Assembly (NCBI GenBank): GCA_951406725.2
Contig: OX597833.1
Coordinates: 72,106,001-72,170,000, forward strand
DNA: 64,000 bases
Reading direction: 5' to 3'
Source of the DNA: Octopus vulgaris
Lineage: Eukaryota
Made by a program: the position numbers and the translations under genes. The notes beneath the pieces were generated by a model, which worked only from the letters and a program-made list of their open reading frames with translations, was not told where the DNA came from and searched no databases. This document shows, in pieces, positions 61 through 58,869 of this stretch. Each line of letters begins with the position of its first letter. Within the stretch, counting starts at the first letter, position 1.

Positions 61-133
61 GGCCCTGTGGCCTAATGGATAAGGCGTCGGCCTCCGGAGC
101 CGAAGATTGTGGGTTCAAGTCCCATCAGGGTCG
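61..133 (+). tRNA. tRNA-Arg-CCG: tRNA-Arg, anticodon CCG (94-96), intronless
   Basis: 73-nt cloverleaf: acceptor stem GGCCCTG/CAGGGTC, discriminator G, A box TGGCCTAATGG, anticodon arm TCGGC-CTCCGGA-GCCGA, T arm GTGGG-TTCAAGT-CCCAT. Confidence 0.95.
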
Positions 134-7069: not shown

Positions 7070-8020
7070 TCATTTCAGTTAGAAATAGCAGAGGAAAATA
7101 TAAGGTTTTTCTACAGAAAATGGAAATCGTATTTCTAAACACGGATTCTTGACGCAATAAGGCGAGTAGAATCTATACAATAAAAAATATATAATCCAGG
7201 AAACAGAACAAAACTTTCCAATAATAATTTTATTGTTTATGATAACAATGTTTATCCAGAGAAGTTAAAATCAAAGATAAAAATGCCTCACTTGAACAGA
7301 TTTAAAATCATCTGAGAAATATATAGAGTAAATTACGAAGAAACCGAAACAGAAAAATGTTTCTGCAATTGAATTTCTTCATGTGAGGACGACGACGCCA
7401 TTCAAAAAGCAGACGACAGAATTTCCGTTGTTCTTCGGAATTCTTTTGAATTGATGTTCGGTCTTTACTAGCATAACTTTCCGTGAAACAAATTCTTGTC
7501 ATGTCTTATCTGATTTTAGTCTCAGTTCAAACAGTAAAAATAAACATCGGACGAAATATAGCAAAATATTTTATAAACAGTTACAGTGAGAAAGACCGGA
7601 CATAAATTTGTAATTCCGAATGACAACGGAAACTTTGTCGTCTGTCTTTTGAATGGCGTCTTCATCTCGACAAGAACAGTTTCGATCGTGAGTTTAGAAA
7701 TGCTTTCTTTTTTTTGGAACCTTTTCTTATAGTTTTCCCATAAAATATTTCTGAAATGGTTTAAAATCCATTCAGGCTTTAAATCCATTCAGCATGTGAG
7801 GCACATTCCTCTTGGTTATAACTTTCGTTATCGTTAACAATTCATATAAATGAAAAGATTTTCAAGTTTTCATTGAAGATGGACCGAAATATCGTTAATT
7901 TGTTTCATTGAATTCTTTTTGTTTGCGTTATCGAGTCGGGGATTCATGTTCAGTGAAACGGTTTCGATTTTACGTAGAAGAACCTTAATTTTCCCTCCTT
8001 TTCTATTTCTAATTGAAACA
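7070..8020. mobile_element. old foldback/MITE with long diverged inverted arms
   Basis: 7073-7165 is a diverged inverse of 7925-8018, and 7380-7445 of 7610-7675. A direct partial copy lies at about 9920-10265. Confidence 0.6.
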
Positions 8021-9899: not shown

Positions 9900-10275
9900 G
9901 GATCAATGCTTAACAGCGAAAACAAAATAAGTCGGATAAAGTATGACGAGAAGTAGTACGGCGGGAAAGACCGGACATAGATTAAAAAGTAATTCCGAAT
10001 GACAACGGAAACCGTGTCGTCTGCCTTTTGAATGACGTCGTCGTTCTGACAAGAACACCTTCGGTCATGAGCTTAGGGATACTTTATTTTTTTGTATCAT
10101 TTATTATAATTTTACCTTAGAATATTTCCGTTCAGGCTTTAAATCCATTCAACATGTGAGATGATTTTCTCGTGGGTTTAACTTTCGTAGATAAACATTA
10201 TCATGAGCAATAATGTCGTTCAAAAGATTTTCAAATTTTATTTAATATGTACCAAAATATCGTTTATTGTCGATC

Positions 10276-10534
10276 TTTCGATACTAGTAACATAACTGCC
10301 ACTTATAAACCACGTGGGTTTATTTACATTTCTGAAGATATATATATATATGTACATACATACACTGCGCACTGTAACCTTTTGAATTAAAGGTACACTC
10401 ACGGGATAAATGTCAACCCAGTGACTCCTGCTCACGATGTCACGCAGTGTATGTATGTATATATATATATATCTTCAGAAATGTAAATAAACCCACGTGG
10501 TTTATAAGTGACAATTATGTTACTAGTATCGAAA
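10276..10534. repeat. inverted repeat with arms of about 93 bp (10276-10369 / 10443-10534)
   Basis: TTTCGATACTAGTAAC...TACACTGCG versus CGCAGTGT...TACTAGTATCGAAA, few mismatches. Confidence 0.9.
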
Positions 10535-10639
10535 TAACGCCAAGTGGGAAACTTCGCATTTTCTCTTTTTGTATTTCTGAGTGAAAGAACGGTGATGTTA
10601 AATATCATATACACATACATACATACATGCATATATGTA

Positions 10640-11610: not shown

Positions 11611-12444
11611 TCTCTCTCTTTCACTTTTGTGAAGGCTCGGTAGGTAGGTAGTTGCAGGTCTGCTACTAGTTTCCTATCGAGCCTTCACATCTATTCTTAC
11701 TTTACAACTCCAATATACACTACCTTCCTCCCCTTTCTAAGGTCTATACCATGTTTTATACTATGTTCTTTATGCATAAATTTTATCAGTTAATGGTTTG
11801 CAGTCATATACTCAACATGCAGGAATTGAATACCTATTTTGTATATCTTAAACTACCTCTGACAAGATTTGATTTTCAAATAATTTTTGATTTTACTAAT
11901 TAATTTTCTGAAGGTCTAGAATTGAAACAGCTGTAAGAGATGTTTGTCAATTTTTTAATTAATAAATAATAAATTATTAATTATCTCTCTATTTTCTTAT
12001 CATATTGTAATAAATAAATATATATAAACCACGGTTTATATAGTTGCCTTACAGTTGAATATTAATTGTAATGTTCAACACTCTTTGTTTAGGTAACTAA
12101 CCTGTACTTTCATGGGATTTTGCTATCCCTTAATGTGGTTTGTAGCCTTTATTTGAACTTATATATATATATATATATATATATAATCTGAAGGTTCATA
12201 GCTTAGTGGTTAGGCTGTTGCACTCATGATTGCTAGATCGTGGGTTCAACTCCTTGATTGAGTGGCATGTTGTTTCTTGAAGAAAACACTTGAATTCATA
12301 TTGCTCCAATCCCCCTTTCAAGGGTGGGGTGGAAGAATGTTGTTCTGCTCACCTAGCCAGCAGAGTGGTGACATTTGAATGCTAAAACAATGCAAAATGC
12401 ATTGTGACCAGTGATGTGTAATATCTTCCCAAGAACACAGTGAA

Positions 12445-22520: not shown

Positions 22521-22733
22521 TTCAAAATGTGACCGCGTGTGTACCATAGGCGATTTTTTTTTCCTCCGTCTTCCCTTCTCTGGATCTTTCCGTTTCCTAT
22601 GTTTCTGACGAAGAGCTCTGCTCGAAACGTAAAACCCTCCTTCTTCCCTTCCTTCCTGAGCATCCAATAATACTATATTTGTTCCACGTCCTCACGTTGT
22701 TGTGTTTTCTCTTTGCGTTTTCATGTTTGGATT

Positions 22734-22738
<5 letters not shown>
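22520..22738 (+). mobile_element. about 220-bp Penelope pLTR- or retrozyme-like element embedded in (TA)n
   Basis: Flanked by (TA)n on both sides; carries a hammerhead motif; its 3' part is repeated at about 20555-20637. Confidence 0.6.
22601..22635 (+). ncRNA. minimal hammerhead ribozyme
   Basis: GTTT-CTGACGA-A-GAGC-TCT-GCTC-GAAAC-GTA-AAAC; stem I GTTT/AAAC; palindromic ACGT in place of stem III. Confidence 0.7.
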
Positions 22739-22813
<75 letters not shown>

Positions 22814-22904
22814 ATATATATGTATATTGCAAATAAGAAAATGGAGGAGAACAATAGGTGGTTCATCAACTTTTGGACATTAAAATGTTAACTTCTTTAT
22901 TTAT

Positions 22905-23213
22905 TAAACTGATGATTATAACATACATACATATAGCATATTATTCTTTGCATATAAGATATAAAATATAGTAATATATAAGGATACCAGTAATTATTAT
23001 AATAAACATGAATATAAATTGGTAAAATAACTTACAGCTGTTTCAGCCAACTTTTATCTATTGGCTGAAACAGCTGTAAGTTATTTTACCAATTTATATT
23101 CATGTTTATTATAATAATTACTGGTATCCTTATATATTACTATATTTTATATCTTATATCTTATATGCAAAGAATAATATGCTATATGTATGTATGTTAT
23201 AATCATCAGTTTA
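22905..23213. repeat. near-perfect palindrome (146/153-bp arms, 10-nt spacer), probably an inverted Penelope pLTR
   Basis: Arms 22905-23050 and 23061-23213 differ by a 7-nt duplication; both contain GAAACAGCTGTA. Confidence 0.9.
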
Positions 23214-23844
23214 TTAACCCCCATGAGCCTTATTCCCTCTGCCATGCCATTTGAATTTACGTGACGGCAGTTTTCCGTAAAAGTATGCTTTGCAATGGGC
23301 AAGGCACAGGAACAGTAGTTACAAGTAGATGGCCTAAATCTGACACAGCAGGTATTTACCCATGGTCAACTATACGTCGGATGTTAATCCGGCCAACACC
23401 AGGAACGTTGTCTACAAAGACACCCTGCAATAACACTTTTGAACTTATGGCCATTACTCTCCCATTGCTGGAGTCATTGTCAGTTTATCAATTTTTTAGC
23501 CCAACTGCATCCACCTTCTTCACGTTGCTGGCCACCTCTGCCAGTCAAACTCGCAACACATATCGTATCCAAAACATTGTAAGTGCAGTCGTATTGTATT
23601 ATTTCAGTTTTGTGAAACAACCTGATTGGTGTTTTGTTTTTCCAGCATTTTCCCTTTATTCTTTGTCCTTCACATCTGCATCCGCAAGGTTCCTCCAGTC
23701 GCTTCTCAAAGACTTTTTAAACATTTGGCATACTTTTTTTTATTACCAATTTTCATTTCTTTGTTTTTTTTTTGGAATTCCTCATCTTTAAAATGTGGCC
23801 CGAGTAGACCCGAATGAAATCGGGTTATAATACTGAAACAAGTA

Positions 23845-23902
23845 AAACAACAAAAAAAACTATGCTATTTTAATCCTGAGCAAGGCCGGGTTTCTCTGCT
23901 AG
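23845..23902 (+). mobile_element. Helitron-like 3' end
   Basis: CCTGAGCAAGGCCGGG hairpin then TTTCTCTG-CTAG followed by T. Confidence 0.55.
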
Positions 23903-23986
23903 TAAATTATAAATAAGAATTGCACCCGTATTGTAACGTTGGGGAACCACTTGATTGTTAAATTTCTTTAAGCGTTTTCAGCTGAC

Positions 23987-26180: not shown

Positions 26181-27121
26181 GGATCTTTTCCCTTTGAATG
26201 GCAGTTTTCAGCACAATTTCTAGTTAACTAAACACTTTTAAACTTCGTTTTCTGGTAGAATGTGACAAAATAAAACATTTTTTCCTCTTGGCTTTCTTGA
26301 GAAAATTGTAATTTGTAAGTTTAACGTAGTTTAATTTTTTGAATTTTAACCAATCAATGGCCTCTATTGAGCTAAAATCATTTGCTGCGTCTAAAACAGA
26401 CAACATCCTGTCACTAACCCTAACCCTAAATTTTAGCCTTTCGTTTTTTTTTTCTTAATTGTTAAATTAATTTAATTGTTACGCATGTGTCTAAAATTAT
26501 TTGTTTTGTTTTTGTTTTGAGTTTTTGCTTTCGTTTTTTTTTTCTTAATTGTTAAATTAAAATTATTTTCCATTGCTTTCGTTTTTTTTTTCTTAAATGT
26601 TATCCTTAAATCAATTTAACAATTAAGAAAAAAAAAAACGAAAGGCTAAAATTTAGGGTTTGGGTGAGGGTTAGGGTTAGTGACAGGATGTCTGTTTTAG
26701 ACACAGCAAATGATTTTAGCTCAATAGAGGCCATAGGATTTTTCGTTTTAGCCTTCCGTTTATTTTTTTCTTAATTGTTAAATTAAAATTATTTTCCATT
26801 GCTTTCGTTTTTTTTTTACTTAATTGTTATCCTTAAATTAATTTAACAATTAAGAAAAAAAAAAACGAAAGGCTAAAATTTAGGGTTAGTGACAGGATAT
26901 TGTTTGTTTTAGACGCAGCAAATGATTTTAGCTCAATAGAGGCCATTGATTGGTTAAAATTCAAAAAAATAAACTACGTTAAACTTACAAATTACAATTT
27001 TCTCAAGAAAGCCAAGAGAAAAAAATGTTTTATTTTGACACATTCTACCAGTATACAAAGTTTAAAGTGTTTAGTTAACTAGAAATTGTGTTGAAAACTG
27101 CCGTTCAAAAGGAAAAGATCC
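26181..27121. mobile_element. non-autonomous foldback DNA transposon with long TIRs and telomere-like repeats (Merlin-like)
   Basis: GGATCTTTTCC...GGAAAAGATCC termini; inverted arms of more than 250 bp; flanks TCCCGGTT/TTGCGGTT (6/8, possible TSD); right half repeated at 36304-36573. Confidence 0.8.
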
Positions 27122-38366: not shown

Positions 38367-39029
38367 GTGAAAAATAGAAGATATATGTATGATGTGTGTG
38401 TGTACGTATATGTATATCGTTGGAAAAATATACATATACGTTTTATATATATATATGTTTTATATATAAAGGTTGTTCTGCCAGGCCTGATCTTTCTATC
38501 TTGGTTCGACTACCATCCGTGCTACGTTTATATTCCTCCCTGTGCCTGTTAAATCTTATGTCTCTGCCATAAGGCTTTACTTCCACACATGCCAGTCAAC
38601 AGACACCTGTTGTTATGTCCTGTTAATTGCATTTGTATTTGTGTAATATTTCTCTGTTTTTTTTCTGTCTTTGTTTTCGTATACATTCACTGCTTTCTTC
38701 CAAGGAATCTAATGCTCTTAGCTTATTTTTTCTTTGGGGCTGGCCAGATTGGAGCAATCTTGAGTATAACTAACCAAAATTGCAAAGATAATCTGGAACT
38801 TGACTGAGGATAGAAAACTCTGAATGACCCATCCTTGTTTTCCTTGTATCGTCTGTCTGGATGCTTTGTTGCCCCTTTTTTGTATCACCTAACTGTCTGG
38901 ATGTTTTGCATTCTTGTCCCATTTTTGTATTTTATATATATATATTTATAATAATAAATATTAGGGAATAAATCCAAATTTACAGGGAAAATCAGATTTA
39001 GGATTGAATCCAATTTTATAGTAAAATAT

Positions 39030-39265
39030 TATATAATATTAATTAGAGACAAAACCACTATTTTGCAAATCAAACAAAGAAAGACTTAATCCAATACATA
39101 AAAAAATGTTAATATAAATTAAATAAAATTATATTCGCCACTACAATTGTTTCATGTCTCTTCTCAGGACATTCATCAGGTGGATTTCAGATCTAAAAAT
39201 AATCAATATTTTTAAGATATAAATTTAAAATGACTAAAACTATCAATAATATAAATTTATCAATG

Positions 39266-39313
<48 letters not shown>

Positions 39314-39490
39314 CTATATATAATCTATATATAATCAAGAACTAAATTAACTAAATTAAGAGACATGAAACAATTGTAGTGGCGAATATAATTTTATTTA
39401 ATTTATATTAAAATTTTTTTATGTATTGGATTAAGTCTTTCTTTGTTTGATTTGCAAAATAGCGGTTTTGTCTCTAATTAATATTATATA
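39030..39490. repeat. inverted repeat with arms of about 133 bp (39030-39162 / 39358-39490), probably an inverted Penelope pLTR
   Basis: Arms are nearly identical; the left copy continues into a complete hammerhead. Confidence 0.9.
39138..39183 (-). ncRNA. canonical minimal type I hammerhead ribozyme
   Basis: Minus strand CCAC-CTGATGA-ATGTC-CTGAGAAGA-GACAT-GAAAC-AATT-GTA-GTGG; all core nucleotides and stems are intact. Confidence 0.85.
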
Positions 39491-39492
39491 TA

Positions 39493-39647
<155 letters not shown>

Positions 39648-58532: not shown

Positions 58533-58869
58533 TTAAACATAAAAGAAAATTACCCTTTAACAGGTAATTTTTACATGCTAGAAAGAGCATTAACACAGTT
58601 AAAACCACAATTTAATAGCAATTTTTGAAGGAAATGAAAAATAAAAACTTTTACCTTGTTATTTTTATTTGCAGTTATACCATGATTTTAAATTTCTTTA
58701 GCAAACAAGATTATCCATGGTATAACTGCAAATAAAAATAACAAGGTAAAAGTTTTTATTTTTCATTTCCTTCGAAAATTGCTATTAAATTGTGGTTTTG
58801 GCTGTGTTGGCTGCTTATTCTAGCATGTAAAAATTAACCTGTTAAAGGGTAATTCTCCTTTGTGTTTAA
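58533..58869. repeat. inverted repeat with arms of about 152 bp and a 31-nt spacer
   Basis: 58533-58684 versus 58716-58869. Confidence 0.9.

Follow-up and report, generated by a model that had tools for sequence, protein, structure and literature searches.

The window analyzed here, i.e., the whole stretch of 64,000 nucleotides of Octopus vulgaris DNA, harbors a palindrome that is placed between a (TA)n-rich tract and an unrelated repeat. The features found at this locus are as follows.

22736-22828, no strand assigned: (TA)n-rich tract that adjoins the left arm; likely the target site.
22829-23050, minus strand: left arm, a 5'-truncated 3' end of an element, from TTGGCT to the inner 3' end of the family; tail-less.
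23045-23050: AGCCAA, left side of the palindrome centre.
23051-23060, plus strand: CTTTTATCTA, loop of the palindrome; this unpaired centre is family sequence found in the right arm only, i.e., the 3' strand of the true stem II.
23051-23213, plus strand: right arm, a 5'-truncated copy that starts about 26 nt upstream of the predicted cleavage site.
23061-23066, TTGGCT; 23067-23070, GAAA; 23071-23076, CAGCTG; 23076-23078, GTA.
23063-23085, plus strand: hammerhead 3' half, with GGCT, GAAA, a 2-bp helix III with an AGCT loop, the GTA site after 23078 and the start of the stem I 3' strand.
23211-23915, plus strand: unrelated repeat with inverted ends, of which about 410 nt of the left part are missing.

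In a self-alignment, the mirrored segments 22905-23050 (146 nt) and 23061-23213 (153 nt) differ by no substitution and by a single 7-nt indel, an additional ATATAAG unit in the right arm. The corresponding self-BLAST match (E 7e-136) lies far past chance expectation, i.e., the palindrome with 146- and 153-bp arms that was described in a first-pass annotation of this DNA is real, as is its centre, AGCCAA-CTTTTATCTA-TTGGCT followed by GAAAC-AGCT-GTA. The annotation also assigned the structure to an inverted pLTR-type insertion of a Penelope-like element (PLE), and both arms indeed match family sequence: the left arm is 92% identical to the family consensus over 234 columns and has the same terminus as other copies, while the right arm is 96% identical and stops about 70 nt before the family's 3' end. 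Rare variants are common to the two arms, and the C at 23051 is a family variant seen in 3 of 28 copies. On the left side the element continues beyond the mirror to the family 3' end at about 22829, beside the (TA)n tract, and (TA)n is found directly 3' of the family end in most copies. The right arm meets the unrelated repeat at a common TTA (three shared bases) and, because this repeat is itself truncated, the end of the right arm is likely a deletion; intact copies of the repeat are about 1.2 kb long with inverted ends of about 125 nt (MITE-like).

That the palindrome is an artefact of assembly or of a chimeric read is scarcely credible. Logan contigs from six runs of other samples contain no piece that bridges the junction, but the right flank is uncovered at 98% identity, which makes this result uninformative; on the other hand, the flanks are unmirrored, the arms differ by the 7-nt indel, each arm has sequence that is absent from the other, and the same architecture is found at dozens of loci. 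A MITE or foldback DNA transposon was also considered and rejected: the palindrome is not the amplified unit, its junction is present in one copy, and the arms are variable fragments of a longer element. Taken alone, the palindrome is an ordinary inverted pLTR.

The hammerhead 3' half of the right arm is mirrored at 23026-23048 on the minus strand, and, relative to the predicted cleavage site, the left arm starts about 17 nt upstream, with TTGGCT. The 5' core, CTGANGA (CUGANGA in RNA), is absent from both strands of both arms, in agreement with the annotation, according to which a mirror image stands in its place; the window copy is therefore not a ribozyme. The annotation's reading as the 3' half of a Penelope-type minimal hammerhead stands as far as the 3' half is concerned, but the motif is not minimal: a helix III of 2 bp is present, closed by a palindromic loop, and the motif therefore belongs to the canonical metazoan type I rather than to the helix-III-less form.

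Other features in the window include a decayed relative of the hammerhead 3' half at 11908-11937 (plus strand), which retains a remnant of the core (CTGAAGG) but lacks most of stem II. A further hammerhead, minimal and unrelated, lies at 22530-22735 (core at 22605, plus strand; CTGACGA, short stem II, GAAA-CG-TA) in a repeat of very high copy number, which terminates at the (TA)n tract that also adjoins the left arm. At 39024-39497 (core at 39179, minus strand), an inverted repeat beside (TA)n contains a type I hammerhead whose stem II is short and whose helix III reads CAATTG; this repeat is likely a further PLE stub of the head-to-head kind. Other families contribute long inverted repeats at 58533-58869, which adjoins (TA)n, 10267-10543, 7388-7666 and 26181-27121, and a tRNA-Arg(CCG) gene is located at 61-133 (plus strand).

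In the 2.8-Gb genome, 1,697 sites match an 18-mer of the hammerhead 3' half exactly. A genome search with the right arm yielded 1,183 candidates, of which 40 were scored, and 28 other copies of the window family were fetched for comparison. The window copy contains no ORF, but walking upstream of window-family copies led to RT fragments, and at three loci (L264, L270 and L271) an RT ORF is collinear with a UTR of the window type, at L270 also with an endonuclease; this link passes via older or internally deleted copies with 68-89% DNA identity rather than via an intact element of the window's subfamily. A young sister family (L265:2414-5278, L266 and L272) has open frames of 955-962 residues, 1,323 exact matches to its 3' marker and many inverted pairs. 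In the 955-aa frame of L265, YRDD is found at 385 and a GIY-YIG-like motif from 837, an order of RT and C-terminal GIY-YIG that is the same in L270, and the sister-family ORF has an asparagine-rich stretch between RT and endonuclease. RWR is present in L265 and RWK in L263; both have DKT and neither has DKG. A CxCX5C linker, CxxC and CxH are located at 817, 915 and 943 in L265, the linker being found also in L263 and the latter two motifs in L270, while a CX2-5CxxC finger has no match in the element ORFs examined. Pfam returned no family for five proteins, nor for one further protein; the Atlas neighbours include RVT_1 clusters.

Judged by these motifs, i.e., RWK/RWR, DKT, CxCX5C, CxxC/CxH and the C-terminal GIY-YIG, the family fits a Hydra-type PLE. 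The same motifs, with CxxC/CxH near the end, are described for Hydra-clade PLEs (Craig et al. 2021, PMC8557442), as are (TA)n targets, a hammerhead near the 3' end, 5' truncation, inverted copies and a tail at one end. Insertion in (TA)n is seen at the window's left flank and in most copies, and a hammerhead lies near the 3' end, with a stem II far longer than in the published rows. The sister-family unit, about 5.6 kb, and the tail, about 150-170 nt, also exceed what is described in PMC8557442 (generally <3 kb for the unit, 30-40 bp for PLE tails). A Naiad identity of the RT is ruled out by the C-terminal endonuclease, DKT and CxCX5C. A non-LTR retrozyme is likewise ruled out, as the copies are dispersed as 3' fragments, in line with an RT ORF, rather than arranged as non-coding tandem units that each hold a hammerhead.

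Intact family copies read CTGACGA-AGCC-TAGAG, then a long hairpin, then TATCTA-TT-GGCT-GAAA. The annotation expected CTGANGA upstream of GAAACAGCTGTA in the family, and it is present: in 17 of the 28 copies it is found about 90 nt upstream of TTTTATCTATTGGCT, in the type I core order CUGANGA, GAAA, NUH; nine of the remaining copies are truncated before the core and two have a mutated core. The annotation's reading of the central hairpin as stem-loop II of the ribozyme fails. In the family, TTTTATCTATTGGCT is preceded by a long hairpin instead of AGCCAA, the true stem II region spans about 97 nt, and CTGANGA-AGCCAA occurs in 0/28 copies. Because the copies carry AGCC-TAGAG and the long hairpin at this position, AGCCAA is a mere mirror of TTGGCT, and the AGCCAA/TTGGCT hairpin of the window is a product of the inversion.

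The loci together yield 79 distinct core-spacer-core motifs, a few of them chance motifs, with a median spacer of 97 nt; 72 of these spacers are closed by pairing at their base, and z is below -2 for 73. The spacer is 85-86 nt in the sister family, and the stem II region overall spans 85-107 nt. The core is invariant except at N7 in 18/18 aligned copies, which were chosen for their core. The structure drawn for these 18 copies is 80% paired, compared to 35-39% when it is slid along the alignment, and double-sided changes are found in 38 cells vs 17 when shuffled (0/500), covariation figures that are inflated by the relatedness of the copies and by the structure having been drawn from L002. Only two pairs of stem I are invariant. 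The hammerhead core does not form in the minimum-energy fold of L002 or in the consensus fold of the alignment, Rfam gave no hit on four family loci, and there is no hammerhead among the best 150 of 184 Rfam matches to the window. Hammerheads of PLEs have been reported to be weak cutters on their own, one of them requiring protein (Cervera and De la Pena 2014, PMC4209133; Frangieh et al. 2024, PMC11167929). The intact relatives are predicted, from sequence and computed pairing, to carry a self-cutting RNA with an unusually long stem II.

The CUGANGA and GAAA core of this RNA is that of the type I hammerheads of PLEs and non-LTR retrozymes (PMC4209133; Li et al. 2026, 10.64898/2026.07.22.740005), with which it also shares a short palindromic helix III that would permit a dimeric fold. 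In these sources helix II is 4-8 bp long, whereas here it is a long bulged hairpin, and the ribozyme is linked to a coding element rather than to a tandem non-coding repeat as in retrozymes. Similarly, six Hydra rows in File S2 of PMC8557442 have a stem II of 4-7 bp with loops of 4-9 nt, compared to the 85-107 nt of the stem II region described here.

Junctions between head-to-head arms were mapped relative to the predicted cleavage site. For the window family the sample consisted of the first 100 among 701 marker matches and for the sister family of the first 100 among 1,323; nearly all of them lie on contigs C1-C2. Among 91 marker-chosen loci of the window family, at least 21 are head-to-head; together with nine from other searches, that of the window among them, these gave 30 window-family junctions. 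They are scattered from -227 to +159, and the junction of the palindrome is the only one of the 30 in which both ends (-17 and -26) lie within the 3' strand of stem II; its exact pattern is matched at a single genomic locus. The annotation proposed that the inversion arose by snap-back priming on the stem II hairpin of the ribozyme. The location of the two window ends would suit such an event, as would a few other junctions on the 3' core (inversions at L034 and L151 are centred there, at the helix III palindrome), and self-priming has been proposed for PLE palindromes (Arkhipova et al. 2013, PMC3846280). However, the 5' strand and the loop of the true 97-nt stem II are missing from the palindrome. 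No junction joins natural stem II partners, as taken from computed folds (0/30 in the window family and 0/36 in the sister family, i.e., 0/66), at most one base pair is available for priming at the window junction, and the helix III palindrome is the only place where the cDNA end folds, at -2.4 kcal/mol. Snap-back priming on stem II is therefore very hard to sustain, and the hairpin is a product of the inversion because no junction joins natural partners and no more than 1 bp could prime. The breakpoints thus do not cluster at the stem II loop, where the annotation placed the link between ribozyme and inversion, but a link does exist, at the predicted cleavage site.

The geometry of the inverted pairs is informative as to their origin. 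In the window family, a 3' tail is found on exactly one arm in 26/30 pairs and on both arms in none; in the other four, including that of the window, one arm is cut short. The sister family provides 33 pairs, in which one arm ends near +202 and the other near +374. Of its 36 rows, four were set aside (a copy of an old subfamily, two rows whose partner is truncated and a tail fragment), one pair that holds an insert was added, and three complex loci were interpreted manually. The tail-less arm reaches further 5' in 12/25 pairs of the window family, one pair with a 382-nt insert having been dropped, and in 12/33 of the sister family. These 24/58 pairs do not derive from the copying of one cDNA, because each arm holds sequence that is absent from the other. 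Nevertheless, the arm ends are coupled: in the sister family 18/33 pairs end within 60 nt of each other, compared to 4.2 by permutation (0/20,000), and in the window family 13/25 end within 25 nt, compared to 6.8 (P 0.005). Subfamily alleles are common to paired arms, with no clear mixed pair in 32, and the junctions have overlaps of 0-4 nt in 19/36 (sister family) and 0-3 nt in 10/30 (window family). Two cDNAs that started from two sites, on opposite strands, and were copied from one RNA or one source locus fit these data best.

A different origin is that one cDNA folded back without help from its sequence and was copied, the second end being resolved by the endonuclease. Near-identical arms and coupled ends would be explained, as would the presumed tail arm of the window being 10 nt longer at the junction, and some pairs may be fold-backs since the tail arm is the longer one in 11/15 closely coupled sister pairs. 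In the window, it is the right arm that extends further at the junction, and its distal end is lost; the ends of this copy alone thus do not discriminate this case. As a general mechanism it cannot yield the 24 pairs described above, and for the window it is considered unlikely. Smaller still is the probability of an inversion after insertion, by template switching during replication, or of arms homogenized by gene conversion. The window arms share one variant found in 0/28 and one found in 1/28 other copies, where private changes number 1-6 per copy, as would be expected from such events. On the other hand, the left arm stops at the exact family 3' end beside (TA)n, which, like the one-tail rule, indicates a structure formed at insertion, and arm divergence in other pairs ranges from 0 to 12%, several pairs being as alike as that of the window; later gene conversion may nonetheless have acted on the arms.

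Collectively, a high-copy Penelope-like retrotransposon is the source of the window palindrome, which consists of two of its 3' ends, each 5'-truncated, placed head to head and probably made as separate cDNAs on opposite strands in one insertion, with the central hairpin as a by-product. According to this two-cDNA scenario, the endonuclease would nick both strands of a (TA)n target, and reverse transcription would start at the inner site on one strand and at the outer (tail) site on the other. Both cDNAs would end at nearly the same point, the template probably being RNA of a single source locus, and their junction would involve either 0-4 nt of microhomology or some filler bases. At the window, the stops 17 and 26 nt upstream of the cleavage site may reflect stalling on entry to the long stem II; a later deletion likely took the last 70 nt of the right arm together with the tail. 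Since the copy holds the uncut site, its template RNA was not cut. Among 5' ends in general, the signal of stalling in stem II is weak for the window family (2.0-fold, p 0.18) but present for the sister family (4.4-fold, p 0.002).

Similar structures are known from other systems. The inverted pLTRs of Adineta vaga Pen (PMC3846280) have head-to-head arms with an asymmetric junction, an optional tail on one arm and an asparagine-rich stretch in the ORF; the palindromes are there attributed to self-priming on the antisense template, whereas the pair geometry observed here is fitted better by two cDNAs. For Anolis carolinensis Poseidon in vitro (PMC11167929), two internal start sites define the tail, both strands are cut and extended, and the hammerhead is protein-assisted, a chemistry that the two-primer model matches.

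The 5' ends of family copies are not evenly distributed. In the window family, 30/100 ends fall at -7 to +32 of the predicted cut, an interval picked after viewing these data, which is 4.0 times the flanking rate (p 3e-8), and the best 40-nt interval beat 300/300 constant-rate simulations. In the same interval, the sister family has 11/102 ends (100 marker matches and two partner arms; 4.5-fold, p 1.5e-4); its best interval starts at -8, with 7/300 simulations as good. The ends are alignment calls in AT-rich flanks, accurate to about 5-10 nt, and a constant rate is a crude null. When one arm is counted per insertion, the enrichment is 3.9-fold (91 loci, p at most 1e-6) and, in the sister family, 3.8-fold (69 loci, median p 0.008). 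The pile-up is not explained by AT or TA richness (AT 0.79 vs 0.84 and 0.75; 0.77 vs 0.75 and 0.79). It is possible that the pile-up is a footprint of hammerhead cleavage in vivo, i.e., that the 5' ends of many other copies reflect ribozyme-cut RNA. In a rival reading the pile-up is due to stalling at the folded ribozyme, and four ends in one family and three in the other lie just upstream of the cut, which cannot be derived from cut RNA.

The sister family has a further hot spot of 5' ends at -577 to -540 (18/102 ends, 16-fold), where a self-complementary 12-13-mer is found downstream of two CCAAT boxes (L322, L359, L325, L296). With a sharp edge and a tail of similar width to the cut-site pile-up, it may mark a pLTR transcription start.

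Inverted and tailed pLTRs are already known (PMC3846280, PMC8557442). What appears to be new is the long stem II and the pile-up of 5' ends at the predicted cut site in two sister families: outside subscription journals, a literature search found no report of a PLE hammerhead with a long stem II or of truncation at the cleavage site, and such cases may exist in the rest of File S2 of PMC8557442, in Repbase models and in the supplements of PMC4209133 and 10.64898/2026.07.22.740005. The function of the hammerhead in endonuclease-bearing PLEs is called unclear in PMC8557442. In the Poseidon work (PMC11167929), cleavage is dispensable in vitro and cut RNA ends were not seen, with no RNA-seq ends at the site, whereas here genomic 5' ends are enriched at the predicted site. 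A replicated 4-fold pile-up of insertion 5' ends thus offers a genomic handle on cleavage in vivo. The relaxed core search described in PMC8557442 uses a spacer of 7-17 nt and half cores of 35-50 nt; because a stem II of about 100 nt would escape it, some PLE families scored as lacking a hammerhead may have one. The two-primer model is testable, since the sister family has long open frames and young inverted pairs in the hundreds. A broader picture, put forward tentatively and held at somewhat less than even odds, is that a Hydra-type hammerhead with a stem II of about 100 nt, beyond published descriptors, cuts in vivo, and that the cut end, like a promoter-defined RNA start, sets the run-off of the RT. 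The ribozyme would thus govern the ends of many solo and inverted pLTRs, and two polymerases would copy one RNA from two starts, their products being joined head to head.
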